A stretch of DNA of 64,000 nucleotides from Escherichia coli (GTDB lineage Bacteria; Pseudomonadota; Gammaproteobacteria; Enterobacterales; Enterobacteriaceae): the NCBI RefSeq assembly GCF_013122565.1, contig NZ_CP053258.1, one strand, 5' to 3'. The translations under genes were made by a program, and so were the position numbers. The notes beneath the pieces were generated by a model, which saw only the letters and a list, made by a program, of their open reading frames with translations, was not told where the DNA came from and searched no databases. Below, one piece after another: positions 4,104 through 43,963 of this stretch (the stretch's first letter is position 1; each line of letters starts with the position of its first letter).

Positions 4104-4880
4104 ATGCGAAAGATTTTTCTTCCGTTGTTACTGGTGGCGCTTTCGCCTGTCGCTCACAGTGAAGGTGTGCAGGAAGTCGAGATTGATGCACCGCTCTCTG
4201 GCTGGCATCCGGCAGAGGGCGAAGATGCCAGTTTTTCACAATCGATCAATTACCCGGCGTCGTCCGTCAACATGGCAGATGATCAAAATATCTCAGCGCA
4301 GATCCGCGGCAAAATAAAAAATTATGCTGCGGCGGGTAAGGTTCAGCAGGGCCGGCTGGTGATCAACGGTGCCAGTATGCCGCAGAGAATTGAATCCGAT
4401 GGTTCATTTGCACGCCCTTATATTTTCACTGAAGGCAGCAACAGCGTGCAGGTCATCAGCCCGGATGGGCAAAGCCGACAAAAAATGCAGTTTTACTCAA
4501 CGCCGGGTACAGGAACGATTCGTGCACGTTTACGGCTGGTTCTCTCGTGGGATACGGACAATACCGATCTCGATCTCCATGTTGTCACGCCCGATGGCGA
4601 ACACGCCTGGTACGGTAACACCGTGCTGAAAAACAGTGGTGCACTGGATATGGATGTCACGACGGGGTACGGACCCGAGATTTTCGCCATGCCAGCACCA
4701 GTTCACGGGCGCTATCAGGTGTATATCAACTACTATGGTGGGCGCAGCGAAACGGAATTAACCACCGCCCAACTGACGCTGATCACCGATGAAGGATCGG
4801 TCAATGAGAAACAGGAAACATTTATTGTACCGATGCGTAATGCTGGCGAGCTGACGCTGGTGAAAAGTTTTGACTGGTGA
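4104..4880 (+). CDS. yfaP: uncharacterized exported protein of the yfaS operon, 258 aa
   Basis: 258-aa ORF with N-terminal signal peptide (MRKIFLPLLLVALSPVAHS), 4 nt after yfaQ. Confidence 0.8.
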   Translation: MRKIFLPLLLVALSPVAHSEGVQEVEIDAPLSGWHPAEGEDASFSQSINYPASSVNMADDQNISAQIRGKIKNYAAAGKVQQGRLVINGASMPQRIESDGSFARPYIFTEGSNSVQVISPDGQSRQKMQFYSTPGTGTIRARLRLVLSWDTDNTDLDLHVVTPDGEHAWYGNTVLKNSGALDMDVTTGYGPEIFAMPAPVHGRYQVYINYYGGRSETELTTAQLTLITDEGSVNEKQETFIVPMRNAGELTLVKSFDW

Positions 4881-4932
4881 TCCATCCCTTCACACAACCT
4901 GGCGCTCTCTTTTTTCAGATAAGACTGCTGGG

Positions 4933-4978
4933 CGATCTGCCGACGCCAGGATATAACCATTAACAAGCGTCGGCAGAT
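4933..4978 (+). terminator. 12-bp perfect inverted repeat (atctgccgacgc ... gcgtcggcagat) downstream of yfaP, candidate terminator hairpin
   Basis: inverted repeat read directly; weak T-run after it. Confidence 0.4.
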
Positions 4979-5151
4979 TGGTCATTTCTTATTCGTACTG
5001 AGAACTGTCCATTTACTCTGGCTTTCCTGGTTAAGGCAATGGTTTCCAAGCGATACGCATTATTGCAATGGTGACAGAACATTGCGGTAACACGCTTTTA
5101 CCGCTACCTTAACCACACTCCATCGGTCACCTGAGGCGGAGCTTCGCCCCT

Positions 5152-8001
5152 TTGAAATACCTTGCTTCTTTTCGTACAACCCTGAAAGCCTCGCGCTACA
5201 TGTTCAGAGCATTGGCGTTAGTGCTCTGGCTGTTGATTGCTTTTTCATCCGTTTTTTACATCGTTAATGCGTTACATCAGCGAGAATCGGAAATTCGTCA
5301 GGAATTTAATCTGAGTTCCGATCAGGCTCAGCGCTTTATTCAACGCACCTCTGATGTGATGAAAGAGCTGAAGTACATCGCTGAAAATCGCTTATCGGTA
5401 GAAAACGGTGTGCTTTCCCCGCGTGGACGAGAAACGCAGGCAGATGTGCCTGCGTTTGAACCGCTGTTTGCCGACTCCGATTGTTCCGCAATGAGTAACA
5501 CCTGGCGAGGTTCTCTGGAGTCATTGGCGTGGTTTATGCGCTACTGGCGCGATAATTTTTCTGCGGCTTACGATCTCAACCGGGTATTTTTAATCGGCAG
5601 CGATAACCTCTGCATGGCCAATTTCGGTCTGCGTGATATGCCAGTGGAACGCGATACCGCGTTGAAAGCTTTGCATGAACGCATCAATAAATATCGAAAT
5701 GCACCACAAGATGATAGCGGCAGTAACCTCTACTGGATCAGCGAAGGTCCGCGCCCTGGCGTCGGGTATTTTTACGCGTTGACGCCAGTTTATCTGGCGA
5801 ACCGGTTGCAGGCGCTTTTGGGTGTCGAGCAAACCATCCGGATGGAGAACTTTTTCTTACCGGGTACGTTGCCGATGGGGGTTACCATTCTTGATGAAAA
5901 TGGTCATACCCTGATTTCGCTTACCGGACCAGAAAGCAAAATTAAGGGCGATCCTCGCTGGATGCAGGAACGCTCCTGGTTTGGCTATACGGAAGGGTTC
6001 CGGGAGCTGGTGCTGAAGAAAAATCTGCCACCCTCATCGCTAAGCATCGTGTATTCGGTGCCGGTTGATAAGGTGCTGGAACGCATTCGCATGTTGATCC
6101 TTAACGCAATTTTGCTGAATGTGCTTGCCGGAGCTGCATTGTTTACTCTCGCGCGGATGTACGAGCGACGTATTTTCATTCCGGCGGAAAGCGACGCCCT
6201 GCGACTGGAAGAACATGAGCAGTTCAATCGCAAGATTGTCGCCTCCGCGCCAGTGGGTATCTGCATTTTGCGTACCGCTGATGGCGTCAATATTTTAAGT
6301 AACGAACTGGCGCATACCTATCTCAATATGCTTACGCATGAGGACCGCCAACGACTGACGCAAATTATCTGTGGGCAGCAGGTCAATTTTGTTGATGTCC
6401 TGACCAGCAACAATACCAATCTGCAAATCAGCTTCGTCCATTCGCGCTATCGTAATGAAAACGTGGCCATTTGTGTGCTGGTGGATGTTTCTTCGCGCGT
6501 GAAGATGGAAGAGTCGTTGCAGGAGATGGCACAAGCAGCGGAACAGGCGAGCCAGTCAAAATCGATGTTCCTTGCCACCGTCAGTCATGAGCTGCGAACG
6601 CCGCTGTATGGCATTATCGGTAACCTGGATCTTTTGCAAACCAAAGAGTTACCGAAAGGCGTCGATCGTCTGGTGACGGCAATGAACAACTCTTCCAGCC
6701 TGTTGTTGAAAATTATCAGCGATATTCTCGATTTCTCGAAGATTGAATCGGAACAGTTGAAGATCGAACCGCGTGAGTTTTCACCGCGTGAAGTGATGAA
6801 CCACATCACCGCCAACTATTTACCGCTGGTGGTACGCAAGCAGTTAGGCTTGTACTGCTTTATTGAACCGGATGTGCCAGTGGCCTTAAATGGCGACCCG
6901 ATGCGTTTACAGCAGGTCATCTCCAACCTGTTGAGTAACGCCATAAAATTCACCGATACCGGCTGTATAGTTTTGCATGTCCGCGCTGATGGCGATTATC
7001 TCTCTATCCGTGTTCGCGATACCGGCGTGGGGATCCCGGCGAAAGAAGTGGTGCGCTTGTTTGATCCCTTCTTCCAGGTCGGAACGGGCGTACAGCGAAA
7101 CTTCCAGGGGACCGGTCTGGGTCTGGCGATTTGTGAAAAACTGATCAGCATGATGGACGGCGACATCTCGGTAGATTCAGAACCGGGAATGGGCAGCCAG
7201 TTTACCGTGCGTATTCCGTTGTACGGCGCTCAGTACCCGCAGAAAAAAGGCGTGGAAGGGTTGAGTGGTAAACGCTGCTGGCTGGCGGTCCGCAATGCGT
7301 CACTCTGTCAGTTCCTGGAAACCAGTTTGCAGCGCAGCGGCATCGTCGTAACAACATACGAAGGGCAGGAACCGACTCCCGAAGATGTGTTAATCACTGA
7401 CGAGGTAGTGAGTAAAAAATGGCAGGGCAGAGCGGTAGTGACCTTCTGTCGTCGACATATTGGTATTCCGCTGGAGAAAGCGCCAGGGGAGTGGGTACAC
7501 AGTGTGGCTGCTCCGCATGAGCTACCGGCATTGTTGGCGCGTATTTATTTGATCGAGATGGAGAGCGACGATCCTGCTAACGCTCTGCCGTCGACGGACA
7601 AAGCGGTCAGCGATAATGACGATATGATGTTTCTGGTCGTGGATGATCATCCGATTAACCGACGTCTGCTGGCAGATCAGTTGGGATCGTTGGGCTATCA
7701 ATGTAAAACCGCGAATGATGGCGTCGATGCGCTTAATGTACTTAGCAAGAATCATATTGATATCGTGCTTAGCGACGTCAACATGCCAAATATGGATGGT
7801 TACCGCTTGACGCAACGCATTCGTCAGTTGGGACTGACGTTGCCGGTAATCGGAGTAACTGCTAATGCGTTGGCTGAAGAGAAGCAGCGGTGTCTGGAGT
7901 CCGGTATGGACAGCTGCCTGTCGAAGCCGGTAACGCTGGATGTGATAAAACAGACGCTGACGGTATATGCCGAGAGGGTCAGGAAATCGCGGGAATCGTA
8001 G
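5152..8001 (+). CDS. rcsC: hybrid sensor histidine kinase RcsC (949 aa)
   Basis: 949-aa ORF starting MKYLASFRTTLK (TTG start), HisKA (SHELRTPL), HATPase and C-terminal receiver domain (VVDDHPINRRL). Confidence 0.95.
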   Translation: MKYLASFRTTLKASRYMFRALALVLWLLIAFSSVFYIVNALHQRESEIRQEFNLSSDQAQRFIQRTSDVMKELKYIAENRLSVENGVLSPRGRETQADVPAFEPLFADSDCSAMSNTWRGSLESLAWFMRYWRDNFSAAYDLNRVFLIGSDNLCMANFGLRDMPVERDTALKALHERINKYRNAPQDDSGSNLYWISEGPRPGVGYFYALTPVYLANRLQALLGVEQTIRMENFFLPGTLPMGVTILDENGHTLISLTGPESKIKGDPRWMQERSWFGYTEGFRELVLKKNLPPSSLSIVYSVPVDKVLERIRMLILNAILLNVLAGAALFTLARMYERRIFIPAESDALRLEEHEQFNRKIVASAPVGICILRTADGVNILSNELAHTYLNMLTHEDRQRLTQIICGQQVNFVDVLTSNNTNLQISFVHSRYRNENVAICVLVDVSSRVKMEESLQEMAQAAEQASQSKSMFLATVSHELRTPLYGIIGNLDLLQTKELPKGVDRLVTAMNNSSSLLLKIISDILDFSKIESEQLKIEPREFSPREVMNHITANYLPLVVRKQLGLYCFIEPDVPVALNGDPMRLQQVISNLLSNAIKFTDTGCIVLHVRADGDYLSIRVRDTGVGIPAKEVVRLFDPFFQVGTGVQRNFQGTGLGLAICEKLISMMDGDISVDSEPGMGSQFTVRIPLYGAQYPQKKGVEGLSGKRCWLAVRNASLCQFLETSLQRSGIVVTTYEGQEPTPEDVLITDEVVSKKWQGRAVVTFCRRHIGIPLEKAPGEWVHSVAAPHELPALLARIYLIEMESDDPANALPSTDKAVSDNDDMMFLVVDDHPINRRLLADQLGSLGYQCKTANDGVDALNVLSKNHIDIVLSDVNMPNMDGYRLTQRIRQLGLTLPVIGVTANALAEEKQRCLESGMDSCLSKPVTLDVIKQTLTVYAERVRKSRES

Positions 8002-8210
8002 GACGGATAAGGTGTTTATGCCGCATCTGGCATTCAGTGCAAATGCCAGATGCGACGCTGACGCGTCTTATCTGGCCTACTTTAATGTAATCTGTTGAAA
8101 TAATGGGAATCGTAGGACGGATAAGGCGTTTACGCCGCATCCGGCAATCGGTGCAAATGCCAGATAAGACACTAACTAGTCTTATCTGGCCTACATCTGG
8201 CCTACAGATG
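7988..8210. repeat. REP/BIME element: two ~100-bp direct copies each containing REP palindromes (gtaggacggataagg...gccgcatccggca, cagataagac...gtcttatctg)
   Basis: direct repeat 7990-8090 vs 8103-8200 read in sequence; convergent rcsC/rcsB 3' ends. Confidence 0.85.
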
Positions 8211-11862: not shown

Positions 11863-11956
11863 AAAAAAAAACCGGATGCGAGGCATCCGGTTGAAATAGG
11901 GGTAAACAGACATTCAGAAATGAATGACGGTAATAAATAAAGTTAATGATGATAGC
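11863..11956 (-). ncRNA. micF: MicF antisense sRNA
   Basis: reverse complement of 11863-11956 reads gctatcatcattaactttatttattaccgtcattcatttctgaatgtctgtttacccctatttcaaccggatgcctcgcatccggtttttttt; divergent from ompC; intrinsic terminator hairpin plus U-run. Confidence 0.95.
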
Positions 11957-12104
11957 GGGAGTTATTCTAGTTGCGAGTGAAGGTTTTGTTTTGACATTCA
12001 GTGCTGTCAAATACTTAAGAATAAGTTATTGATTTTAACCTTGAATTATTATTGCTTGATGTTAGGTGCTTATTTCGCCATTCCACAATAATCTTAAAAA
12101 GTTC

Positions 12105-18273: not shown

Positions 18274-19932
<1,659 letters not shown>

Positions 19933-19934
19933 TG

Positions 19935-20300
19935 ATGTGCCACATCCGGCATGGTATGCCGGATGTGGCGTATGCTGATAAGACGCGCCAGCGTCGCATC
20001 AGGCAACCGGCTTGGGTGTTAGATGTCGGATGCGGCGTAACCGACTTATTCGACCTACGGGGTGGAGCACTTCACAGCGGTGTAGGCCTGATAAGACGCG
20101 TCAGCGTCGCATCAGGCAACCGGCTCGGACGTTGGATGTCGGATGCGGCGTAACCGCCTTATCCGACCTACGGGGTGGAGCACTTCACAGCGGTGTAGGC
20201 CTGATAACACGCGTCAGCGTCGCATCAGGCAACCGGCTCGGGCGTTAGATGTCGGATGCGGCGTGACCGCTTTATCCAACCTACGGGGTGCCGCACTTCA
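19935..20300. repeat. tandem array (about 3 copies, 113-bp period) of a REP-containing unit (BIME-like)
   Basis: ataagacgcg[c/t]cagcgtcgcatcaggcaaccgg recurs at 19978, 20091 and 20204 (period 113 bp); palindromic ggatgtcggatgcggcgtaaccg units. Confidence 0.9.
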
Positions 20301-20307
20301 CGGCAGT

Positions 20308-20796
20308 TTAGCGAACTACTGCGTTGTCAATTTTCTCTTCCGCCTTCCAGACGCGGTACTTCACATCCACATTGTCTGGCGTATACACCACGATCGGCAG
20401 CTTGCTGTTGTAACGCAGCATTCCGGCATCGCCCAGATACGCGGTGACAAATTTCCTCTCTTTCTTGCCATCCGGGCAGGCCATCATCGTGGAAACCGGC
20501 GAGCTACCTTTATCAAAGACATAATAATCATAGCCCCAGCCTTCCAGCGTTTTGCTTTCCAGCTTCCCGCCGAGACGATGCAAATTACAATCGACTTCCA
20601 GCGTCTGACCGATTAACAGTTCTACTTTCAGGGTAGATTCATCTTCTTGCGGGGTTAACTGAATCACCTGACGCTTCATGCCTTTTTCAGCTTGTGGATA
20701 AGGCGCGATTTTTTCCAGTGGCTGGACGCTCTCTGCCGCCCAGGCGGAAGTGGTGGCGAAAGCGGCAAACAATACTGCAGGTAGAATGGTCTTCAT
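20308..20796 (-). CDS. eco: ecotin serine protease inhibitor, 162 aa
   Basis: [20 protein letters not shown] signal peptide; start trimmed from the 169-aa track ORF. Confidence 0.95.
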
Positions 20797-21055
20797 TTTT
20801 TTGCTTTCCTTCTTCATTTATAGGTTTTCACCGATGATGTCGCTGAAGGTTAACATATTCATCAGATTTATTAATTTGCTTTATGAATAACTTAAAGAAT
20901 ATTCAGACAATTTTACCTGCTCTTTTAGTGTTAAATTCTGATGAGAGAACAAACCAGCAGAAATATCTCTGGTGAATTAATCGCTATATAAATATGTTTA
21001 TAACCATTAGAAATGTGAGCAAAAGCCCGTTTTTGCCACGCTTCCCGCCACTCTT

Positions 21056-21090
21056 TTGATCCTGCTACAGGTTTTACCCCGATCGGGGTA
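21056..21090 (+). promoter_or_regulatory. napF promoter: FNR-like half-site region (ttgatcctgctaca) and perfect NarP/NarL 7-2-7 palindrome taccccgatcggggta (21075-21090)
   Basis: 16-bp perfect palindrome read directly; centres ~20 bp apart, consistent with the described napF FNR(-64.5)/NarP(-44.5) arrangement. Confidence 0.75.
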
Positions 21091-21203
21091 TGCACCTTTG
21101 ACACAACCTTTTATATCTTAGCGGCCATAAAAATAGCTTATTAGTTGTGTGGTTTATTTGCTCGCTCTCAATTTTCAGAGCGCGTTAATGATGGAAGGTC
21201 AAT

Positions 21204-21698
21204 GTGAAGATTGATGCATCCCGTCGGGGCATACTCACTGGTCGCTGGCGCAAAGCCAGTAACGGTATCCGTCCGCCCTGGTCCGGTGATGAATCTCATT
21301 TTCTGACCCATTGCACCCGCTGCGACGCCTGTATTAATGCTTGTGAAAACAACATTCTGCAACGCGGCGCGGGTGGCTATCCGAGCGTTAATTTCAAAAA
21401 TAACGAGTGCAGCTTCTGTTACGCCTGCGCGCAGGCTTGCCCCGAATCGCTATTTTCTCCGCGCCACACCAGGGCCTGGGATTTGCAGTTCACCATTGGG
21501 GACGCGTGCCTGGCGTATCAGTCAGTTGAATGCCGCCGCTGTCAGGATAGCTGTGAGCCAATGGCAATTATCTTTCGCCCGACGCTCTCCGGGATCTACC
21601 AGCCGCAACTTAATAGCCAACTTTGCAACGGATGTGGAGCATGTGCAGCCAGCTGTCCGGTATCAGCCATAACTGCGGAGTATCTCCATGCACACTAA
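21204..21698 (+). CDS. napF: ferredoxin-type protein NapF, 164 aa
   Basis: multiple CxxCxxCxxxCP clusters; first gene of nap operon. Confidence 0.95.
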   Translation: MKIDASRRGILTGRWRKASNGIRPPWSGDESHFLTHCTRCDACINACENNILQRGAGGYPSVNFKNNECSFCYACAQACPESLFSPRHTRAWDLQFTIGDACLAYQSVECRRCQDSCEPMAIIFRPTLSGIYQPQLNSQLCNGCGACAASCPVSAITAEYLHAH

Positions 21699-29800: not shown

Positions 29801-31740
29801 TGCCGGAAATTGGTAACGGACTGCTGTGCCTGGCGCTGGGAATTGCGCTGCTGCTGTCCGTGTATCCGCTATGGGGCGTGGCGCGCGGAGATGCGCGCAT
29901 GATGGCGTCTTCCCGCTTGTTTGCCTGGCTGCTGTTTATGTCTGTAGCTGGCGCATTTCTGGTGCTGGTCAATGCTTTCGTGGTCAACGACTTTACCGTC
30001 ACCTATGTTGCCAGCAACTCCAATACCCAGCTTCCGGTGTGGTATCGCGTGGCGGCTACCTGGGGCGCGCATGAAGGCTCGCTACTGCTGTGGGTGCTGC
30101 TGATGAGCGGCTGGACCTTTGCGGTGGCGATTTTTAGTCAGCGTATTCCGCTGGATATTGTGGCCCGTGTACTGGCGATAATGGGGATGGTCAGCGTCGG
30201 CTTTTTGCTGTTCATTCTCTTTACCTCTAACCCGTTTTCACGCACGTTGCCGAACTTCCCGATTGAAGGGCGCGATCTTAACCCGCTGTTACAGGATCCG
30301 GGGCTGATCTTCCATCCGCCTCTGCTCTATATGGGGTACGTGGGTTTCTCGGTGGCGTTTGCTTTTGCCATTGCTTCTTTGCTGAGCGGGCGTCTGGACA
30401 GCACTTATGCGCGTTTTACTCGTCCGTGGACGCTGGCGGCGTGGATTTTCCTGACGCTCGGCATTGTGCTCGGTTCCGCATGGGCCTATTACGAACTCGG
30501 CTGGGGTGGCTGGTGGTTCTGGGATCCGGTAGAAAACGCCTCGTTTATGCCGTGGTTGGTGGGTACTGCGCTGATGCACTCACTGGCGGTCACTGAACAA
30601 CGCGCCAGCTTCAAAGCGTGGACATTACTGCTGGCAATCAGTGCCTTTTCGCTGTGTCTGTTGGGGACTTTCCTGGTGCGTTCCGGCGTGCTGGTATCGG
30701 TACACGCGTTTGCGTCTGATCCGGCGCGCGGTATGTTTATCCTCGCCTTTATGGTGCTGGTGATTGGCGGTTCGCTGCTGCTGTTTGCCGCGCGTGGACA
30801 CAAAGTTCGCTCACGCGTAAACAATGCGCTGTGGTCGCGGGAATCTTTGCTGTTAGCGAACAACGTTTTGCTGGTCGCCGCAATGCTGGTGGTGTTGCTG
30901 GGGACGCTGCTGCCGCTGGTGCACAAGCAACTGGGACTGGGCAGTATTTCGATTGGCGAACCGTTCTTCAACACCATGTTTACCTGGCTGATGGTGCCGT
31001 TTGCTCTACTGCTGGGTGTCGGTCCTCTGGTGCGCTGGGGGCGCGATCGCCCACGTAAAATCCGCAATTTATTGATTATCGCCTTCATCTCAACGCTGGT
31101 GCTGTCGCTGCTGCTGCCGTGGCTGTTCGAAAGCAAAGTTGTGGCGATGACGGTGCTCGGCCTGGCAATGGCCTGCTGGATTGCGGTGCTGGCAATTGCG
31201 GAAGCTGCGCTGCGTATTTCACGTGGCACGAAAACCACCTTCAGTTATTGGGGAATGGTGGCGGCTCACCTGGGGCTGGCAGTGACAATTGTTGGTATTG
31301 CCTTTAGCCAGAACTATAGCGTTGAGCGTGATGTGCGCATGAAGTCCGGCGATAGTGTCGATATTCATGAATATCGCTTCACCTTCCGTGATGTCAAAGA
31401 GGTGACTGGCCCGAACTGGCGTGGCGGTGTGGCGACTATCGGCGTAACGCGAGAGGGTAAACCAGAAACGGTGCTGTATGCGGAAAAACGTTATTACAAC
31501 ACTGCCGGGTCGATGATGACCGAAGCGGCGATTGACGGCGGCATCACGCGTGACCTGTACGCGGCCCTCGGTGAAGAGCTGGAAAACGGCGCGTGGGCCG
31601 TGCGTCTTTACTACAAACCGTTTGTTCGCTGGATTTGGGCGGGCGGGCTGATGATGGCGTTGGGCGGACTGCTGTGTCTGTTTGATCCTCGCTATCGTAA
31701 GCGCGTGAGCCCGCAAAAAACTGCGCCGGAGGCTGTATGA
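29797..31740 (+). CDS. ccmF: cytochrome c heme lyase subunit CcmF, 647 aa
   Basis: 647-aa polytopic ORF with W-rich motif ([12 protein letters not shown]). Confidence 0.95.
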
Positions 31741-32294
31741 AGCGCAAAGTATTGTTAATTCCGTTGATTATCTTCCTGGCGATTGCCGCGGCGCTGCTGT
31801 GGCAGCTGGCGCGTAATGCCGAAGGGGATGATCCGACCAATCTGGAATCGGCGCTCATTGGCAAGCCTGTGCCGAAGTTTCGTCTCGAATCACTGGACAA
31901 TCCAGGGCAGTTTTATCAGGCGGATGTGCTGACTCAGGGCAAACCAGTGCTGCTTAACGTCTGGGCGACCTGGTGTCCGACCTGCCGTGCGGAACATCAA
32001 TATCTGAATCAGCTTTCAGCGCAGGGCATTCGCGTGGTCGGCATGAACTATAAAGACGATCGCCAGAAGGCAATCAGCTGGCTGAAAGAGCTGGGCAATC
32101 CTTACGCGCTAAGCCTGTTTGATGGCGACGGCATGTTAGGGCTGGATCTCGGTGTCTATGGCGCGCCAGAAACGTTCCTTATTGACGGCAACGGCATCAT
32201 TCGCTATCGCCATGCGGGCGATCTCAATCCTCGCGTCTGGGAAGAAGAGATCAAGCCGCTGTGGGAGAAATACAGTAAGGAGGCCGCACAATGA
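31737..32294 (+). CDS. ccmG: thiol:disulfide interchange protein CcmG/DsbE, 185 aa
   Basis: thioredoxin motif WCPTC. Confidence 0.95.
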   Translation: MKRKVLLIPLIIFLAIAAALLWQLARNAEGDDPTNLESALIGKPVPKFRLESLDNPGQFYQADVLTQGKPVLLNVWATWCPTCRAEHQYLNQLSAQGIRVVGMNYKDDRQKAISWLKELGNPYALSLFDGDGMLGLDLGVYGAPETFLIDGNGIIRYRHAGDLNPRVWEEEIKPLWEKYSKEAAQ

Positions 32295-33343
32295 GGTTTT
32301 TATTGGGCGTGCTGATGCTGATGATCTCCGGCTCAGCGCTGGCGACCATCGACGTGTTGCAGTTTAAAGATGAAGCACAGGAACAACAGTTCCGTCAGCT
32401 CACTGAAGAACTGCGCTGCCCGAAATGCCAGAACAACAGCATTGCCGATTCCAACTCGATGATTGCCACCGACCTGCGCCAGAAAGTGTATGAACTGATG
32501 CAGGAAGGTAAAAGTAAAAAAGAGATTGTCGATTATATGGTGGCGCGTTACGGCAACTTCGTCACTTACGATCCGCCGTTAACGCCGCTGACCGTATTGC
32601 TGTGGGTGCTGCCAGTAGTGGCTATTGGCATTGGCGGTTGGGTCATATACGCCCGCTCGCGGCGTCGGGTACGCGTGGTGCCGGAAGCGTTTCCTGAACA
32701 AAGCGTGCTGGAAGGTAAGCGTGCCGGATATGTTGTTTATCTGCCGGGTATTGTGGTGGCGTTAATTGTGGCTGGCGTCAGCTACTACCAGACTGGCAAT
32801 TATCAGCAGGTGAAAATCTGGCAGCAGGCCACGGCACAGGCTCCGGCGTTGCTGGACAGGGCGCTGGATCCGAAAGCTGATCCGCTCAACGAAGAAGAGA
32901 TGTCGCGCCTTGCGCTGGGGATGCGTACTCAACTGCAAAAAAATCCGGGAGATATAGACGGCTGGATTATGTTGGGCCGCGTTGGCATGGCGCTGGGTAA
33001 CGCCAGTATTGCCACCGATGCATACGCTACTGCATATCGCCTCGATCCGAAGAACAGTGATGCTGCACTGGGTTACGCTGAAGCGTTGACACGTTCATCT
33101 GATCCCAACGACAACCGCCTGGGGGGTGAACTACTACGCCAGTTGGTGAGAACGGACCATAGCAATATCCGTGTGTTAAGCATGTATGCGTTTAATGCCT
33201 TTGAGCAGCAGCGATTTGGCGAAGCCGTTGCCGCGTGGGAGATGATGTTGAAACTCTTACCTGCCAACGATACTCGCCGTGCTGTGATTGAACGTAGTAT
33301 CGCGCAGGCGATGCAACATTTGTCGCCGCAGGAGAGTAAATAA
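32291..33343 (+). CDS. ccmH: cytochrome c heme lyase subunit CcmH, 350 aa
   Basis: N-terminal LRCPKC motif, C-terminal TPR-like region. Confidence 0.94.
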   Translation: MRFLLGVLMLMISGSALATIDVLQFKDEAQEQQFRQLTEELRCPKCQNNSIADSNSMIATDLRQKVYELMQEGKSKKEIVDYMVARYGNFVTYDPPLTPLTVLLWVLPVVAIGIGGWVIYARSRRRVRVVPEAFPEQSVLEGKRAGYVVYLPGIVVALIVAGVSYYQTGNYQQVKIWQQATAQAPALLDRALDPKADPLNEEEMSRLALGMRTQLQKNPGDIDGWIMLGRVGMALGNASIATDAYATAYRLDPKNSDAALGYAEALTRSSDPNDNRLGGELLRQLVRTDHSNIRVLSMYAFNAFEQQRFGEAVAAWEMMLKLLPANDTRRAVIERSIAQAMQHLSPQESK

Positions 33344-33380
33344 AAAGTGGCCCGATGGTGATTCCATCGGGCTATTTTTA
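33344..33380. terminator. bidirectional intrinsic terminator between ccmH and narP (gcccgatgg...ccatcgggc flanked by A-run/T-run)
   Basis: hairpin with flanking aaaaa / ttttt. Confidence 0.8.
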
Positions 33381-34025
33381 TTGTGCCCCGCGTTGTTGCA
33401 GGAACAGAATGGTGGCCGCCACGCGTGAGCGGACATTGAGTTTACGCAGCAGATTGCGAATATGTACTTTTACTGTCTGCTCGGAAATATTCAACACCGA
33501 GGCAATTTGTTTATTTGACAGCCCCTGTGCCAGCTCGTGCAGAACATCCAGCTCGCGCTCCGTCAGCACGCTGAAGGGATCTTCTTCCGCGCCAAACATT
33601 TCACGTTCACGCAAGTACTGATTGACGCGTTCGCTAAAGACTTTGCTGCCTTTCGCTCCGGCACGAATCGCTTCCAGCAACACTTCCGGGTCGCTGTCTT
33701 TCAACAGATAACCGTCTGCGCCTGCGTCTATCAGCGCAAAGACATCGCTGGAGGCATCTGATACGGTCAGGATAATAATTTGCGCGGTAACGCCATCCCT
33801 GCGCAAGGCATTGAGGGTATCCAGGCCACTCATACCTTTCATATTGAGATCCAGCAAGATCACGTCGATATCCAGTCTATTCGCCAGATCGATAGCACTC
33901 GCGCCGTCGCCTGCTTCGGCGACCACTTCAAAGCCAGGATCAAGCTCCAGTAACTGACGAACACCGCGTCGCATAAGTGGATGATCATCCACAATCATCA
34001 CCTGAAAAGGCGTTGCTTCAGGCAT
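33378..34025 (-). CDS. narP: nitrate/nitrite response regulator NarP, 215 aa
   Basis: MPEATPFQVMIVDDHPLMRRG receiver domain, LuxR HTH C-terminus; start trimmed from track ORF. Confidence 0.95.
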   Translation of the reverse strand: MPEATPFQVMIVDDHPLMRRGVRQLLELDPGFEVVAEAGDGASAIDLANRLDIDVILLDLNMKGMSGLDTLNALRRDGVTAQIIILTVSDASSDVFALIDAGADGYLLKDSDPEVLLEAIRAGAKGSKVFSERVNQYLREREMFGAEEDPFSVLTERELDVLHELAQGLSNKQIASVLNISEQTVKVHIRNLLRKLNVRSRVAATILFLQQRGAQ

Positions 34026-34344
34026 AGTAGTCTCCTGAGGTTTTATTAGAATCATTATGTTTGAGCGTAGCGTTGGTAACGCTACCAGGCGCGTGAATGT
34101 TACCCCATTTTATGTATGGACATGTAGTGAAAACTACAACCTTGTCGTTCGCTTCGGCATCATTTTCATTATAAAGACGGAATTTTGCATCAGCTTCTCA
34201 TCAAGAAAAACACCTAAAAAATCAATCACAATACTTGTGCATTTCTTTAAACAGTTTTTAAAAACTGACTCCGGGTATGGAGCTATGGGTATTTTCCGTA
34301 CCCAATGCTTTTAACAGCAATTAATTTCATAGGATGAAAGCTCA

Positions 34345-36936
34345 ATGCATCAATCTGGTTCTGTTTCTCTTTGTCGTTCCGCAATATCTGTTCTGGTGGC
34401 TACAGCGTTATATTCACCCATAGCATTGGCATCAACAGTTGAGTATGGTGAGACAGTTGATGGTGTTGTCCTGGAAAAAGATATCCAGCTGGTTTATGGG
34501 ACCGCCAATAATACGAAAATCAATCCTGGCGGAGAACAGCATATTAAAGAATTTGGTATAAGTAGTAATACTGAAATTAACGGCGGGTATCAGTACATTG
34601 AAATGAATGGCACCGCAGAATACTCCGTATTAAATGATGGTTATCAAATTGTTCAAATGGGTGGCGCGGCAAACCAGACTACCCTCAATAATGGTGTGCT
34701 ACAGGTTTATGGCGCAGCGAATGATCCCACGATTAAAGGCGGGCGCTTAATCGTTGAAAAAGATGGGATTACCGTCCTTGCCGCTATCGAAAAGGGAGGA
34801 TTACTGGAGGTTAAAGAGGGGGGGTTAGCGATTGCGGTAGATCAGAAAGCCGGCGGTGCTATTAAAACAACCACGCGGGCCATGGAGGTATTCGGAACAA
34901 ACCGTCTCGGTCAGTTCGATATCAAGAATGGTATTGCTAACAATATGCTGTTGGAAAACGGCGGAAGTTTGCGAGTTGAAGAAAATGACTTCGCTTATAA
35001 TACTACTGTAGATAGTGGCGGCTTACTGGAGGTTATGGATGGCGGGACTGCAACTGGCGTTGATAAAAAAGCAGGCGGAAAATTAATTGTCTCAACGAAT
35101 GCGCTGGAAGTGAGTGGTACAAACAGTAAAGGCCAATTTAGTATAAAAGATGGTGTGTCAAAAAATTATGAACTGGACGATGGTTCCGGGCTCATTGTTA
35201 TGGAGGACACGCAGGCCATTGATACTATCCTTGATGAGCATGCCACTATGCAATCGCTGGGAAAGGATACTGGTACGAGAGTGCAGGCAAATGCGGTATA
35301 TGATCTGGGTCGATCAGATCAGAATGGAAGTATCACGTATTCCTCTAAAGCCATCTCTGAAAATATGGTTATCAACAATGGCCGCGCTAATGTCTGGGCA
35401 GGCACAATGGTTAACGTTTCAGTCAGAGGGAATGATGGCATTCTTGAGGTCATGAAGCCGCAAATAAATTATGCACCCGCTATGTTGGTGGGTAGTGTCG
35501 TGGTTTCTGAGGGCGCTTCTTTAAGAACGCATGGTGCCGTGGATACCAGCAAAGCGGATGTTTCGCTCGAAAATAGCTCATGGACCATCATTGCCGATAT
35601 CACTACGACGAACCAAAACACCCGCCTCAATTTAGCCAACCTTGCGATGTCTGGCGCAAATGTGATTATGATGGATGAGCCAGTGACTCGTTCATCTGTG
35701 ACGGCAAGTGCGGAAAATTTCACTACGTTGACCACCAATACCCTGTCGGGAAACGGCAATTTTTATATGCGTACCGATATGGCTAATCATCAGAGCGATC
35801 AGCTCAACGTCACCGGACAGGCAACAGGTGATTTCAAAATATTCGTGACGGACACCGGTGCCAGCCCGGCAGCAGGAGATAGCCTTACACTGGTAACAAC
35901 GGGCGGCGGTGATGCTGCATTTACGTTGGGCAATGCCGGAGGCGTTGTTGATATCGGTACGTATGAATATACCTTGCTGGATAATGGCAATCATAGCTGG
36001 AGTCTGGCAGAGAATCGCGCGCAAATTACCCCTTCAACCACTGATGTGCTAAATATGGCGGCAGCACAACCGCTGGTATTTGATGCAGAACTGGACACCG
36101 TGCGTGAGCGTCTTGGTAGCGTAAAAGGCGTTAGTTACGATACGGCGATGTGGAGTTCGGCAATTAACACCCGCAACAACGTGACCACTGATGCGGGCGC
36201 TGGTTTTGAGCAAACATTGACGGGCCTGACGCTCGGTATCGATAGCCGTTTCTCCCGTGAAGAAAGCAGTACAATTCGCGGCTTGTTCTTTGGTTACTCT
36301 CATTCTGATATTGGTTTTGATCGCGGCGGCAAAGGCAATGTCGATAGCTATACCCTGGGTGCTTATGCCGGTTGGGAGCATCAGAACGGTGCCTATGTTG
36401 ATGGGGTGGTGAAAGTTGACCGTTTTGCCAACACCATCCATGGCAAGATGAGTAATGGGGCAACAGCGTTTGGCGATTACAATAGTAACGGCGCGGGTGC
36501 TCATGTTGAGAGCGGGTTCCGTTGGGTTGACGGATTGTGGAGTGTTAGACCCTATCTGGCCTTTACCGGCTTTACCACAGATGGTCAGGACTACACGTTA
36601 TCAAACGGCATGCGCGCGGACGTGGGAAATACCCGGATATTACGCGCTGAAGCGGGAACGGCGGTAAGCTATCACATGGACCTGCAAAACGGTACGACGC
36701 TGGAACCCTGGCTGAAAGCCGCCGTGCGTCAGGAATACGCCGATTCTAACCAGGTGAAAGTTAATGACGATGGCAAATTTAATAATGATGTGGCTGGAAC
36801 CAGTGGCGTTTATCAGGCTGGGATAAGGTCATCGTTTACCCCGACGTTAAGCGGTCATTTGTCAGTCAGCTATGGCAATGGCGCAGGGGTAGAATCACCG
36901 TGGAATACTCAGGCGGGTGTGGTCTGGTCGTTCTGA
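34345..36936 (+). CDS. yejO: autotransporter adhesin-like protein YejO, intact 863 aa
   Basis: N-terminal signal peptide, repetitive passenger, C-terminal beta-barrel ending VVWSF; adjacent to tRNA-Pro as yejO is. Confidence 0.85.
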   Translation: MHQSGSVSLCRSAISVLVATALYSPIALASTVEYGETVDGVVLEKDIQLVYGTANNTKINPGGEQHIKEFGISSNTEINGGYQYIEMNGTAEYSVLNDGYQIVQMGGAANQTTLNNGVLQVYGAANDPTIKGGRLIVEKDGITVLAAIEKGGLLEVKEGGLAIAVDQKAGGAIKTTTRAMEVFGTNRLGQFDIKNGIANNMLLENGGSLRVEENDFAYNTTVDSGGLLEVMDGGTATGVDKKAGGKLIVSTNALEVSGTNSKGQFSIKDGVSKNYELDDGSGLIVMEDTQAIDTILDEHATMQSLGKDTGTRVQANAVYDLGRSDQNGSITYSSKAISENMVINNGRANVWAGTMVNVSVRGNDGILEVMKPQINYAPAMLVGSVVVSEGASLRTHGAVDTSKADVSLENSSWTIIADITTTNQNTRLNLANLAMSGANVIMMDEPVTRSSVTASAENFTTLTTNTLSGNGNFYMRTDMANHQSDQLNVTGQATGDFKIFVTDTGASPAAGDSLTLVTTGGGDAAFTLGNAGGVVDIGTYEYTLLDNGNHSWSLAENRAQITPSTTDVLNMAAAQPLVFDAELDTVRERLGSVKGVSYDTAMWSSAINTRNNVTTDAGAGFEQTLTGLTLGIDSRFSREESSTIRGLFFGYSHSDIGFDRGGKGNVDSYTLGAYAGWEHQNGAYVDGVVKVDRFANTIHGKMSNGATAFGDYNSNGAGAHVESGFRWVDGLWSVRPYLAFTGFTTDGQDYTLSNGMRADVGNTRILRAEAGTAVSYHMDLQNGTTLEPWLKAAVRQEYADSNQVKVNDDGKFNNDVAGTSGVYQAGIRSSFTPTLSGHLSVSYGNGAGVESPWNTQAGVVWSF

Positions 36937-36995
36937 TAACAGAAAATAAACAGGCTGTGATGTGTCGCGGTCTGTTTATCGAATTAAATGCAGAT

Positions 36996-37030
36996 ATAAA
37001 AAAACCAACCGTAAAGGTTGGTTTTTTTTG
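36996..37030. terminator. intrinsic terminator (ccaaccgtaaaggttgg + T8) shared by yejO and the convergent tRNA
   Basis: hairpin followed by tttttttt, preceded by A-run. Confidence 0.85.
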
Positions 37031-37037
37031 GGATTTT

Positions 37038-37114
37038 TGGTCGGCACGAGAGGATTTGAACCTCCGACCCCCGACACCCCATGACGGTGCGCTACCAGGC
37101 TGCGCTACGTGCCG
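37038..37114 (-). tRNA. proL: tRNA-Pro (GGG anticodon), 77 nt including CCA
   Basis: reverse complement reads CGGCACGTAGCGCAGCCTGGTAGCGCACCGTCATGGGGTGTCGGGGGTCGGAGGTTCAAATCCTCTCGTGCCGACCA. Confidence 0.93.
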
Positions 37115-37188
37115 ACTCGTGGCTGTTAATACTACCGTTTTCCACACCGATTGCAAGTAAGATATTTTGCTAACTGATTTATAATTAA

Positions 37189-38949
37189 TCAGTTAGCGAT
37201 AAAACGCTTCTCGTCTGTCAGTACTTGCAATAACAAACTTAACTGTGGTTTTTCATCTTTCACTCTTTCACCACGTAAGTTGTAAGTACGGTATTTACCG
37301 TTATTGTTCAGCACCAGCGTCTTTTTCGGGGTGGTAATTGCCAGCGTATCGTTATCCGCGGCGGTAACCCAGTAATGACGGCGTTGAGGGTTGAACAAAT
37401 CCTGACCTTGCGAATATTCGCTGGCAGGTGTGCTGACATGTAGCAGGCGTTGCATCAGCGTCGTCATCAGATCGGTATGATCAGTCAGAGCATTAATACG
37501 CTGCGCCGGCGTGCCTGGCCAGTGAATCACTAATGGTACCTGCAGATGACCGTGGGACCAGTCAAAGGTTTCTTCCTCTTCGCTCAGCGGAATACCCCGA
37601 CCGGCAGTGATAATCACCACCGTATTGTCCAGTTTGCCAGAATCACGCAGTGCATTGAGCACGCGGTTGATCTGGTCATCGACATTGCCTGCCGCCCGGC
37701 TATATTTCCGTGAAAATGCCTGCTGATTGCTGTCGTCAATGTTAGTGCCATTGAAAGAGACCCACGAGAACCAGCGGTTATCTTCTTGTGCGTAGCGGCC
37801 CAGCCAGTTGATCCACTGCGTGGCGGTCTGCTCGTCGGATTGGGTGCGTACGCTCGGCATCGAGAAATCTGACAACAATGCCTGGCGATACAGCGGGCTG
37901 GTAAAGCCATCTGACGAGAATAACCCCAGCTGATAGCCTTGCTGATTAAGCGCAGTAATTAACGCCGCAGGGGTACGGGTCGACAGAATGCCGTCCATAT
38001 AGCTCGGCGAGATGCCATAGAACAGGCCAAAGATGCCGTTGTCTGTAGTGTTGCCGGAGCTCATATGGCGCGTGAACGAAATATTTTGCTCAGCAAAACC
38101 TGCCAGCGCAGGCATCTGCTTCTCGAAGCGTGAGTAGTTCAGGCCATCGACAGTAATCAACAGCACATTCTGCCCAGTGCCCATATCGCGATAGCGCAGT
38201 TCGCTTAACGGATACTGAACGGAAACGGCGTCTGGATTACCTTGCTCAATAAGACGGCGTTGATACTCCTGCGCATCAAGCAGGCCATGCTTCTCAAGAA
38301 AACGTCGCGCCGTCATCGGGTACGAAAGCGGCAGGTTAGCGCGCTGCATGGTGATCGGGCGATAGAAGTTGGCATCGGCCCAGATATACACCACATGCGA
38401 GGCGATAAAGGCGATAAATAAGAATGCGGCCAGCGGGCGCGCGAAGCGTCGACGACGCGTCAGGCTGCGCAGCTTTTGCCAGCTCCACGTCGCAAACACC
38501 AGTTCAAGCAATAAAATAACCGGCACGCTGATGAACATCAGCTGCCAGTCGCGCGCCATCTCATTTTCGTCTGGGTTGATAACCAGTTGCCAGACGATGG
38601 GATTAAGATGGAGATGGAAACGAGTAAAGACTTCGCTATCGATCAGTAATAGCGTCATTCCCGCCGTTGCCAGAATGACGGACAAAAACCTCATCAGCCT
38701 CTGGGAGCCGACGATAAAGGTCAGCGGGAAGAGGATTAGCAAGTAGGTGGCAAACACCAGGAAGCTGAAATGGCCGATAATGCTTACGTAGGAATAAATG
38801 CGACCAGCAAGCGTGGTCGGCCAGTCGGCGATAAACAGGTAACGGCTGCCAATGACGAGCGAAAGCAGAATATTGAACAGTGCAAACCAGTGCCCCCAAC
38901 TGACCATCTGGGAGACTTTTTCACGGTAGCGCTGACGATGAGTTACCAT
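37189..38949 (-). CDS. yejM: inner membrane protein YejM (PbgA/LapC), sulfatase-like periplasmic domain, 586 aa
   Basis: 586-aa ORF, N-terminal TM helices, position after proL. Confidence 0.93.
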   Translation of the reverse strand: MVTHRQRYREKVSQMVSWGHWFALFNILLSLVIGSRYLFIADWPTTLAGRIYSYVSIIGHFSFLVFATYLLILFPLTFIVGSQRLMRFLSVILATAGMTLLLIDSEVFTRFHLHLNPIVWQLVINPDENEMARDWQLMFISVPVILLLELVFATWSWQKLRSLTRRRRFARPLAAFLFIAFIASHVVYIWADANFYRPITMQRANLPLSYPMTARRFLEKHGLLDAQEYQRRLIEQGNPDAVSVQYPLSELRYRDMGTGQNVLLITVDGLNYSRFEKQMPALAGFAEQNISFTRHMSSGNTTDNGIFGLFYGISPSYMDGILSTRTPAALITALNQQGYQLGLFSSDGFTSPLYRQALLSDFSMPSVRTQSDEQTATQWINWLGRYAQEDNRWFSWVSFNGTNIDDSNQQAFSRKYSRAAGNVDDQINRVLNALRDSGKLDNTVVIITAGRGIPLSEEEETFDWSHGHLQVPLVIHWPGTPAQRINALTDHTDLMTTLMQRLLHVSTPASEYSQGQDLFNPQRRHYWVTAADNDTLAITTPKKTLVLNNNGKYRTYNLRGERVKDEKPQLSLLLQVLTDEKRFIAN

Positions 38950-38968
38950 AACCTGTTATCTGTTTCCC

Positions 38969-39196
38969 TTAGTGCGCTTTGTCTTCGTTGATAGAGGACT
39001 GTAAGGCGCGGGCAAAAGAGTTGGCAATTGCCTGGCGTTGGGCCGGGGCAATGCTAGTGTTGATAAGGTTAGTGACCATGTTGCCTAACACCATCAGGGA
39101 AAGGTCGGTCGGAGCCTTATGTTTTTCCAGTACGTTGAGCAGCTCTGCGAGCAATTGTTCAACTTGTTCATCACTGTAGCGGGAAATTTGTGGCAT
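38969..39196 (-). CDS. yejL: UPF0352 protein YejL, 75 aa
   Basis: 75-aa [19 protein letters not shown] upstream of yejM. Confidence 0.9.
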
Positions 39197-39377
39197 AAAT
39201 CGAAATCAGTTAGTTGATGAAAGGGCAACATATTACCGTAGCAACGGTTTTTTTTCTGCTTTTTTATGCGTTAAATCATTCTCGTTACGCTGCCTTCTGT
39301 AAAATGACCGCCATCTTTTATTGCGTCGCTTAACCGGCGGTGGTTGAATACCGCCCGGTCTTAAAGGAGAGTTTATC

Positions 39378-40385
39378 ATGAGTCTGGATATCAACCAGAT
39401 TGCTCTGCACCAGCTTATCAAGCGTGATGAGCAGAACCTTGAGCTGGTGTTGCGCGATTCATTGCTGGAACCGACAGAAACCGTCGTTGAGATGGTGGCA
39501 GAACTGCATCGGGTCTATAGCGCCAAAAATAAAGCTTACGGCTTGTTTAGCGAAGAGAGTGAACTGGCGCAGACGCTGCGCTTACAGCGTCAGGGCGAAG
39601 AGGACTTTCTGGCATTTAGCCGCGCGGCAACCGGTCGCCTGCGTGACGAATTAGCGAAATATCCTTTTGCTGACGGTGGATTCGTGCTGTTTTGCCACTA
39701 CCGTTATCTGGCGGTGGAGTATCTGCTGGTGGCAGTCCTGAGCAACCTGAGCAGTATGCGCGTTAACGAAAATCTCGACATCAACCCAACCCATTATCTT
39801 GATATCAATCATGCGGATATTGTTGCGCGTATCGATTTAACCGAATGGGAAACCAATCCAGAGTCGACCCGCTATCTCACTTTCCTGAAAGGGCGAGTAG
39901 GGCGCAAAGTGGCGGATTTCTTTATGGATTTCCTCGGGGCCAGCGAAGGGTTAAACGCGAAAGCGCAAAACCGTGGGCTGTTGCAAGCGGTTGATGATTT
40001 CACTGCCGAAGCACAACTGGATAAAGCAGAGCGACAGAACGTGCGCCAGCAGGTTTATAGCTACTGTAATGAGCAGCTGCAGGCAGGCGAAGAGATTGAA
40101 CTGGAGTCGCTGTCGAAAGAGCTGGCAGGCGTCAGCGAAGTGAGCTTCACGGAGTTTGCGGCTGAAAAAGGCTACGAACTGGAAGAGAGCTTCCCGGCAG
40201 ACCGTAGCACACTGCGTCAGTTGACGAAGTTTGCCGGTAGCGGCGGTGGCTTGACTATTAACTTTGATGCGATGCTGTTAGGTGAACGCATCTTCTGGGA
40301 TCCGGCGACCGATACCCTGACCATTAAAGGCACGCCGCCGAATTTGCGCGACCAATTGCAGCGCCGGACGTCTGGTGGGAACTAA
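39378..40385 (+). CDS. yejK: nucleoid-associated protein YejK (NdpA), 335 aa
   Basis: 335-aa [22 protein letters not shown]. Confidence 0.94.
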
Positions 40386-40765
40386 ATCTCCAACGCGAAT
40401 GTTTCTTTTCGGAGAAACAGTTGCGGGATAATCACAATTCTTGTCAATCAGTTAGTGAGATGACTTGCTGATTGACCTTTCATTCGAAAATGTTTTCTCT
40501 GTTATTATACTTAGTGTTACTGAAAATATTATTCTCTTATCCCCTTTATTCGATAATAAATCGGTCTGGTCACTATTTCCGCCGTTTTTTGTGAGCTGTA
40601 ACACTGGAAAAATCATTCTGTTTAATTATATTGAGTTTACTTGGCGTTATATGTTGTTATTTGCTTTGACTATATAAAATGCAAATGTATTCTTAATGTC
40701 AATATTATTGTCGTTATGTTTGACTCATTATATTAATCGTATGAATAGTTTTAAGGATTCACCGC

Positions 40766-41338
40766 ATGGAGCAAGAAAATCCTGAAGATAGAAAGTGTTG
40801 TCGACCGAAAAAAACGTTCTCTTTAACCAGAAAATTACTGGTATGTTTTATCTTTACCCTCATTGTATTCAGTGGTTGTTTATTTGTCGTTATGAACACG
40901 GTCATTCATAACACCAGCACTGACAGCTTTTGCCTGGGTTGTCATGAAATGAAAGACAACATCCTTACCGAGAGTTTCAAAAAATCCATTCATGGCAGTA
41001 ATCGTACTGGCGTGAAAGTCGCTTGTGCCGATTGCCATATTCCTGATGAATTTGTCCCTAAGATGATCAGAAAAGCCCACGCCGTTAAAGAGGTTTGGGG
41101 GCATATGACAGGCGTAATTGATACGGCCGATAAATTCGATGCACATCGTGGCGAAATGGCAAAAGCGGAATGGGCAAGAATGAAAGCAAACAATTCGCAG
41201 GAATGCAGAGACTGCCACGATATTTCTAAATTACAGAAAAAATTTATGGCGCCGTTCCATGAGGCTTCTCTTAAAGAAGGGAAAACATGCATTGATTGTC
41301 ATGCCGGCATTGCACATAAATTACCAGCAGTTCATTAG
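40766..41338 (+). CDS. NapC/NirT/CymA-family membrane-anchored tetraheme cytochrome c (putative quinol dehydrogenase), 190 aa; NapC paralog
   Basis: N-terminal TM helix (LLVCFIFTLIVFSGCLFVV), four CxxCH (CLGCH, CADCH, CRDCH, CIDCH); shares blocks VPKMIRK, NNSQECR-CH, TCIDCH-GIAHKLP with the napC in this window. Confidence 0.85.
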   Translation: MEQENPEDRKCCRPKKTFSLTRKLLVCFIFTLIVFSGCLFVVMNTVIHNTSTDSFCLGCHEMKDNILTESFKKSIHGSNRTGVKVACADCHIPDEFVPKMIRKAHAVKEVWGHMTGVIDTADKFDAHRGEMAKAEWARMKANNSQECRDCHDISKLQKKFMAPFHEASLKEGKTCIDCHAGIAHKLPAVH

Positions 41339-41431
41339 TCATTAATACATGAATGTCATGTCTGTCTGGTTTCAAATAAAAACAAGAAGGGTTTCATGTT
41401 GATTTAAGTTTTTATGTAAAAGGACCATGTT

Positions 41432-43072: not shown

Positions 43073-43479
43073 GTAAGCTATTGAAGAACATTGTCACAAT
43101 CATTCTTGCTGGCGTAATGTGCACCGTTATCGGTATGGTTTCTGCCAGTGCACAAGAGATTGTCGGCATGAAAATGCACAAGACCATTGGTCTGGAATGT
43201 AATAACTGCCATGTTGATGATGTTAAAGCCAACAAGAATATGACGCCAACGTGCGTTAGCTGCCATGCGCCTGGTGAGCGTTATTATCATGGTAAGAAGG
43301 ATTCAGAAGGTAACTCAGTGTTAAAAGAGTATCCGGAGTCGGGTAAAACACGAGTTGCGTCTTTCCATGACTCTCATGGCGGGGAAATTCGCTGTACGGT
43401 ATGCCATACGTCACATGAGAAGGAACCACAGCCACTCTATTGCAACAACTGCCATCAGTTTGATGTGAAGATTAAGTAG
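43069..43479 (+). CDS. small periplasmic tetraheme cytochrome c, 136 aa
   Basis: signal peptide, four CxxCH (CNNCH, CVSCH, CTVCH, CNNCH) in ~110 mature residues; ATGA overlap with upstream flavoprotein gene. Confidence 0.85.
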   Translation: MSKLLKNIVTIILAGVMCTVIGMVSASAQEIVGMKMHKTIGLECNNCHVDDVKANKNMTPTCVSCHAPGERYYHGKKDSEGNSVLKEYPESGKTRVASFHDSHGGEIRCTVCHTSHEKEPQPLYCNNCHQFDVKIK

Positions 43480-43501
43480 TGAAGGTATTTGTCAGTCGCT
43501 G

Positions 43502-43540: not shown

Positions 43541-43554
43541 AACTTATTCAGCAA

Positions 43555-43947
<393 letters not shown>

Positions 43948-43963
43948 TCAATCAAAACTACCA

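Follow-up and report, generated by a model that had tools for sequence, protein, structure and literature searches.

The mqo-eco interval

The window is a 64,000-nucleotide stretch of Escherichia coli DNA (contig NZ_CP053258.1). Within it, the mqo gene on the plus strand and the eco gene on the minus strand converge upon a repeat array, which occupies the common 3' region of both. The two stop codons are separated by 375 bp, filled entirely by a palindrome and the array. The flanking genes and the palindrome are as follows:

18286..19932, plus strand: mqo (malate:quinone oxidoreductase) coding sequence; Pfam Mqo, 4.6e-240; RefSeq annotation of homologous loci; stop codon TAA at 19930-19932
19935..19973, no strand assigned: single-copy palindrome; perfect 14-bp arms at 19939-19952 and 19956-19969, 3-nt loop
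20308..20796, minus strand: eco (ecotin) coding sequence, 162 aa, MKTILPAV...IDNAVVR; Pfam Ecotin, 3.4e-50; translation; RefSeq annotation of homologous loci

A single array, at 19975-20301, was detected by Tandem Repeats Finder (period 113; 2.9 copies; 92% matches; 0% indels; score 563), and no other tandem repeat in the 64-kb window scores 80 or more. A repeat search places in-register copies at 19975, 20088, and 20201, with identities to the first copy of 100%, 94%, and 86%, respectively. The third copy is cut to 107 nt by the eco stop codon (20308-20310).

The original prediction, made from the letters alone, had described three tandem copies of a 113-bp REP-containing unit between convergent mqo and eco, each with two different palindromes, and had dismissed the open reading frames that cross the array as spurious. 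The period and the three in-register copies bear out the tandem array; the Pfam matches and the RefSeq annotation of homologous loci bear out its position between convergent genes; and the open reading frames (73, 78, 86, and 157 aa) matched no Pfam family, in keeping with their dismissal. Two details require adjustment. The predicted interval, 19935-20300, is too wide at its left end: the repeat begins at 19975, and the first 40 nt are a separate, non-repeated palindrome, the rest being array. The predicted motif recurs at all three predicted positions (19978, 20091, and 20204), with none expected by chance in 100 shuffles; its 33 nt are exact at 19978 and 20091, but the copy at 20204 carries one mismatch (ATAAC for ATAAG).

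Anatomy of the repeat unit

Inverted-repeat searches and folds both identify two different imperfect palindromes in each unit, as predicted. These are REPs of the Y and Z2 types with GTAG/CTAC tags, so that the units are indeed REP-containing. The 113-bp unit dissects into six parts: a Z2-type REP (32 nt, GCCTGATAAGACGCG..CGCATCAGGC); a head-to-head linker (20 nt); a Y-type REP (30 nt, GTCGGATGCGGCG..CCTTATCCGAC); CTAC (4 nt); a tail-to-tail linker (23 nt); and GTAG (4 nt). The parts are arranged as follows:

19973..20004, plus strand: unit 1 Z2-type REP; degenerate foot, GTATG-C where units 2 and 3 read GTAGGC; lacks the GTAG tag
20005..20024, no strand assigned: unit 1 head-to-head linker, 20 nt, from the dissection
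20025..20058, plus strand: unit 1 Y-type REP, inverted, ending in CTAC; uncompensated stem mutations, the broken pairs being marked by the Rfam alignment
20059..20081, no strand assigned: tail-to-tail linker 1, 23 nt, GGGGTGGAGCACTTCACAGCGGT; locus-specific
20082..20117, plus strand: unit 2 GTAG and intact Z2-type REP; fold -21.9 kcal/mol, z -6.1
20118..20137, no strand assigned: unit 2 head-to-head linker, 20 nt; lacks the IHF core motif
20138..20171, plus strand: unit 2 intact Y-type REP and CTAC; fold -19.1 kcal/mol (plus strand), -20.2 kcal/mol (minus strand)
20172..20194, no strand assigned: tail-to-tail linker 2, 23 nt, identical to linker 1 by dissection
20195..20230, plus strand: unit 3 GTAG and Z2-type REP, with one stem mutation (ATAAC), from the dissection
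20231..20250, no strand assigned: unit 3 head-to-head linker, 20 nt, from the dissection
20251..20284, plus strand: unit 3 Y-type REP and CTAC, with stem mutations, from the Rfam alignment and dissection
20285..20307, no strand assigned: terminal variant of the tail-to-tail linker, running up to the eco stop codon; weak 6-bp hairpin on the eco-sense strand (-8.5 kcal/mol, z -1.2), not significant

Units 2 and 3 have GTAG ahead of their Z2 REPs (at 20082 and 20195), and each of the three Y REPs is followed by CTAC (at 20055, 20168, and 20281). Five of the six REPs are therefore tagged; the exception is the first Z2 REP, which has GTATG instead. The array thus holds six palindromes, each 30-32 nt long. 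Folding energies of the intact copies are -19 to -22 kcal/mol on either strand (z -3.5 to -6.1), and the stems are interrupted by internal loops of 1-2 nt, the small internal mismatch typical of REPs. The region as a whole also folds better than chance (z -4.3 for the plus strand, -5.1 for the minus strand).

The REP head motif is found at nine positions in the window, all within two intergenic loci, where chance would give 0.72. (The second locus, at 8001-8210 between the convergent genes rcsC and rcsB, corresponds to REP162 of K-12, which is listed there as two bidirectional terminators; at 8001-8191 it gives two Rfam naRNA4 matches above the gathering score, at 66.7 and 66.2 bits.) REPs are highly repeated in the genome: a 1051-bp query matches a median of 11 places per E. 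coli genome.

BIME-2 elements consist of Y and Z2 REPs in inverse orientation, joined by a short linker, and lie in tandem with a copy number that varies among strains (Ton-Hoang 2012, PMC3333891). Each unit of the window has this order, Z2 (GTAG side), 20 nt, then Y (CTAC side); the units are tandem and variable in number; the palindromes match the Y and Z2 consensus with GTAG tags; and the corresponding K-12 locus holds such an array. The mqo-eco array is a BIME-2 cluster, ordinary and already catalogued (REP161 in K-12). A search of the linkers for the IHF core motif, WATCAANNNNTTR, found none, and its lack excludes a BIME-1/RIB identity. The 222-bp "Replication Risk Sequences" (RRS) are likewise excluded: these are located at dusC and lysO.

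The palindrome at the mqo stop codon

The single-copy palindrome begins 3 nt past the mqo stop codon. As plus-strand RNA it forms an 18-bp stem that includes two G-U pairs (-29.2 kcal/mol, z -5.7); as minus-strand RNA the stem is 14 bp (-27.8 kcal/mol, z -7.5). Both arms look like one half, the head, of a Y-type REP, and the REP motif scan matches the palindrome with one mismatch. In 5401 of 5426 complete E. coli genomes this palindrome is present exactly once, always at the mqo end.

The K-12 counterpart, at 2305063-2305108, is described as an 18-bp stem of -33.4 kcal/mol, labelled "eco:mqo", "REP161", and "Convergent" (Harris et al., bioRxiv 2026, 10.64898/2026.03.23.713779). This entry belongs to a set of bidirectional terminators taken over from a previous 3'-end mapping study, in what is apparently Table S16 of the same report (10.64898/2026.03.23.713779). 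The palindrome of the window is the ortholog of this mapped bidirectional eco:mqo terminator. A consensus scan of 19933-20307 for a hairpin followed by a U-tract found none on either strand, and the palindrome has no U-tract; transcripts must therefore end in or at the REP structures and the palindrome.

The original prediction had proposed that the array itself might act as terminator or mRNA stabilizer for the two transcripts. That proposal accords with the published view of the class, represented by REP325, but the terminator mapped in K-12 is the single-copy palindrome and not the 113-bp repeats.

Two relatives bear on the origin of the palindrome. In E. whittamii, half of the palindrome follows mqo, its right arm continuing into a complete Y REP; in Escherichia sp. 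E1V33, the first Z2 REP retains GTAG where E. coli reads GTATG. Because of these variants, the E. coli terminator palindrome is probably a remodelled REP, or REP relic.

A REP within 15 nt of a stop codon is reported to cause ribosome stalling and lower translation (Liang et al. 2015, as summarized in PMC12306157). The palindrome lies within that distance of the mqo stop codon.

Copy number among genomes

Units were counted in complete E. coli genomes by searching with the joined flanks, minus the repeat, and reading the distance between them in a sample of genomes taken at even intervals down the ranking. The 59 intact loci in the sample fall into five classes:

1 unit: 39 genomes
3 units: 3 genomes
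5 units: 3 genomes
6 units: 12 genomes
7 units: 2 genomes

Every fetched locus changes in steps of exactly 113 bp. The 60th sampled genome has four units, interrupted by IS621.

Searches of the whole collection agree. At least 80% of the three-unit query is covered in one place in 3635 of 5425 genomes, and an internal unit-to-unit junction is present in 1987 of 5426 (36.6%), at 1-11 occurrences per genome. Sample and junction count together indicate that about two thirds of E. coli genomes have a single unit. In K-12 the junction query matches four places, which are the four junctions of the K-12 array that the search can detect. Since the count is that of the array itself, the linker is locus-specific and the expansion local. 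Copy number is thus variable across E. coli genomes, as predicted, both in the sampled loci (including the four-unit IS621 allele) and in the distribution of the junction. The stronger phrase in the prediction, "hot spot", is overstated for the allele in the window, whose units are 7-11% diverged and which is an inherited haplotype (see below).

E. whittamii and Escherichia sp. E1V33 both have the mqo-eco array too, each in about three units, so that it predates the split of these species. A scan for the tail-to-tail linker, with one genome per species, found the two Escherichia relatives together with 13 chance matches in unrelated MAGs. (The E. coli species representative gave no linker match, though fetched single-unit E. 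coli alleles contain matching sequence; the representative may carry a linker variant, or the data may be incomplete.)

The IS621 element (IS110 family, about 1280 bp) lies in the array of E. coli 2017-02-2CC (NZ_AP027764.1), at about 4540-5830 of the locus. It is inserted at GTAG|GC of a unit junction; the other strand reads ATCAGGC-CT-AC, within a REP. REPs are the published insertion target of IS621.

How copies change

Four three-unit genomes were compared: the window, YZMc3-1, O145:H28 RM12761, and EC20-72C-1. Units with the same number are close. Between the window and YZMc3-1, mismatches per 100 nt number 3, 0, and 0 for units 1, 2, and 3; across all four genomes, unit 2 varies at 0-1 positions. 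Units within one genome differ from each other at 4-11 positions per 100 (7-11 in the window). The allele in the window is therefore a haplotype of long standing, acquired by descent, and not the product of recent expansion.

The longer arrays are of another kind. In K-12, unit 2 is identical to unit 4 and unit 5 to unit 6; in the seven-unit strain C288, unit 2 is identical to unit 3 and unit 5 to unit 6. Removing one terminal unit from the K-12 array gives the five-unit allele. Judged by these identities, the longer K-12-type arrays carry recent duplications.

Units would be gained and lost when the direct repeats misalign in register, in either replication slippage or unequal recombination. 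This fits because all changes involve whole units in register. Cleavage by the RAYT protein (TnpA-REP) possibly assists: TnpA-REP performs cleavage and strand transfer, or recombination, at BIME sites in vitro (Ton-Hoang 2012, PMC3333891).

Likely role

Overall, the region is very probably best explained as a three-unit allele of the REP161 BIME-2 cluster that acts mainly at the RNA level and changes by whole units in register. By analogy with better-studied arrays, the repeats most likely provide RNA 3'-end hairpins that would attenuate read-through and stabilize the mRNAs. This suggests a model in which the palindrome ends both transcripts: mqo transcripts would be expected to stop there, whereas eco transcripts would enter the array, with the palindrome as the last stop. 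Within the eco 3' UTR, and within any RNA that reads through from mqo, REP hairpins would block 3'-to-5' exonucleases and attenuate read-through, partly via Rho; they would thereby separate the convergent transcription units and set mRNA stability. At the DNA level, where binding by gyrase and cleavage by RAYT are known for this class, the BIME-2 cluster may also serve as a gyrase target and as substrate of TnpA-REP/RAYT.

Precedent comes from REP325, the best-studied BIME-2 array, which attenuates downstream transcription about 8-10-fold, partly in a Rho-dependent manner, makes the upstream mRNA more stable, and gives rise to a ladder of RNAs that end in hairpins. Where REPs lie between convergent genes, both genes tend to be more highly expressed, and mapped bidirectional terminators contain 78 REPs. 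(A search for papers naming mqo, ecotin, and REP together found none.)

Several observations temper this model. Units 1 and 3 carry uncompensated stem mutations, as in decaying copies. Since about two thirds of genomes have one unit, the extra units are not needed, and their number may be neutral. In the REP stems of 22 distinct units, drawn from 12 genomes, there are 11 G-U and 6 A-C mismatches and one compensatory double change. The counts show no clear strand bias, and thus no sign in the sequence of structural selection on one RNA strand.

Unit number is nonetheless structured by lineage: 1 in most lineages; 3 as a conserved haplotype; and 5-7 in K-12 and B-type strains. It could, improbably, be a heritable dial that sets the length, stability, or read-through of the eco 3' UTR and, through these, the antisense pressure on mqo; the palindrome could also damp mqo translation.

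A model for nucleoid-associated RNA also matches the array. Rfam naRNA4 (RF02564; gathering score 59.5) aligns with the Y-linker-Z2 pair of each unit:

19973-20055, minus strand: naRNA4, unit 1; 49.1 bits, below the gathering score
20085..20168, minus strand: naRNA4, unit 2; 75.3 bits, above the gathering score
20198-20281, minus strand: naRNA4, unit 3; 56.2 bits, below the gathering score

The match supports the BIME-2 architecture and not a small-RNA gene, because the model is a generic Y-linker-Z2 profile and because the nucleoid role was not reproduced in 2026. The alternative is that the units encode naRNA4-like RNAs, cut from the eco 3' UTR, that bind HU and condense the chromosome. All three units do match on the eco-sense strand, and the original work on naRNA4 reported HU binding and DNA condensation for which the two-hairpin shape alone was needed (PMC4550694). 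However, only one unit reaches the gathering score, and RF02564 recognizes in effect any Y-linker-Z2 pair, that at 8001-8191 included. Moreover, in the 2026 re-examination, whose authors include one from the original work, neither deleting REP325 nor overexpressing naRNA4 altered nucleoid size, and neither a stable ternary complex nor REP-REP contacts were seen. A nucleoid RNA is accordingly a very remote prospect. A CRISPR array or protein-coding repeats would have even less to recommend them. Regularly spaced palindromes crossed by open reading frames of 73-157 aa might prompt either idea, but the stretches between palindromes are themselves repeated, not unique; no Rfam CRISPR direct repeat matches; and no Pfam family matches. 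Both are refuted.

Two other readings deserve more weight, although each is less probable than not. One, drawn by analogy, is that the array acts mainly on DNA, as a gyrase site or topological insulator between convergent genes, more units supplying more gyrase sites. Passages of PMC10592627 describe BIME-2 elements as in vivo targets of gyrase cleavage and as barriers to transcription-induced supercoiling (citing Espeli & Boccard 1997 and others), and place 70-77% of them at borders between supercoiling regions. The convergent arrangement of mqo and eco is confirmed, and positive supercoils build up between convergent genes. Against this, sequence cannot show binding, and most genomes have a single unit; a gyrase role is in any case compatible with one at the RNA level. 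A primarily topological function is thus possible but doubtful. The other reading, of which a similarly tentative view seems right, holds that the extra units are functionless: selfish REP/REPIN remnants spread by the REP-associated transposase, resized by slippage, and tolerated in the gap. Unit number ranges from 1 to 7 without obvious constraint; the outer units of the window allele have uncompensated stem mutations; a single compensatory pair change is found among the 22 distinct units; TnpA-REP cleaves and recombines BIMEs in vitro; and IS621 sits inside the array of one strain with no consequence to be seen for the flanking genes. Yet nearly all of the 5426 genomes, and two further Escherichia species, retain at least one unit and the palindrome; unit 2 varies by no more than one base across the four three-unit strains; and the sister array REP325 has experimentally strong effects on neighbouring genes. 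Action at RNA 3' ends, as outlined above, remains the preferred reading.

The array is an ordinary feature of E. coli genomes that already has a name and is well recognized, and nothing about it is new. What the analysis adds is the dissection of the unit; the recognition of a separate, conserved palindrome, a terminator in K-12; the spectrum of copy numbers across 5426 genomes; and the identification of the three-unit form as a stable haplotype. For annotation, the appropriate label is REP/BIME-2 cluster, and no genes should be called from the open reading frames across the region. The locus offers a clean natural series (1, 3, 5, 6, and 7 units with one common terminator palindrome) for the effects of unit number on transcript ends and stability. 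The number of mqo-eco units could also be used as a typing marker.

Other features of the window

A low-GC stretch of about 3 kb (40420-43500; 33-48% G+C) lies between yejK and rplY. Two of its genes have recognizable products:

40766-41338: NapC/NirT-type tetrahaem cytochrome c (PF03264, 4e-57)
41432-43072: FAD-binding flavoprotein of the fumarate-reductase type (PF00890, 1e-43)

In a matching contig, a small cytochrome c3-like protein (136 aa) is encoded next after these genes. By megablast, the low-GC stretch matched none of the 5426 complete E. coli genomes. Over 18933-21307 and 30000-50000, the identity of the window to any complete E. coli genome in the collection does not exceed 98.3-98.6%, none reaching 99%; its lineage, possibly Shigella or a divergent Escherichia clade, is therefore not represented there. 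Other Rfam matches are as expected for the region: the MicF sRNA (11864-11957, minus strand); a tRNA (37041-37114, minus strand); and the L25 ribosomal-protein leader (43861-43886, minus strand).

Comparison with known systems

BIME-1 elements (RIB/RIP; Y and Z1) resemble the array in having paired inverted REPs at gene 3' ends. They are single-copy, with a long L linker that contains an IHF site (PMC3333891), whereas the units of the window have a Z2 partner and a short linker, and lie in tandem. REPINs with RAYT, in Pseudomonas and others, share the inverted doublet of GTAG-tagged REPs and the tie to the Y1 transposase family. The E. coli pair differs in joining REPs of two types, Y and Z2, and its doublets multiply on the spot as tandem copies; the 64-kb window contains no RAYT gene.

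REP325 (naRNA1-6; yjdM-yjdN of K-12; RF02564) is closer. It too consists of tandem units of inverse Y and Z2 REPs with constant linkers, and the units of the window align over the whole 77-nt Rfam model. The two arrays occupy different loci, REP325 lying between tandem genes and the window's array between convergent ones. They differ also in dimensions: a period of 100 versus 113; a head-to-head linker of 13 versus 20 nt; and a tail-to-tail linker of 17 versus 23 nt, unrelated in sequence. The foot of the Y REP is GCCGGAT in REP325 and GTCGGAT here.

The closest system is REP161 of K-12 MG1655, which matches the window in locus, flanking genes, leading palindrome, 113-bp unit, and linkers. K-12 has six units in a 714-bp gap, as opposed to three units in 375 bp. 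Its palindrome forms a perfect 18-bp stem, whereas that of the window has 14 perfect pairs plus two G-T positions. Finally, units 1 and 3 of the window carry substitutions of their own, and these are common to other three-unit strains.
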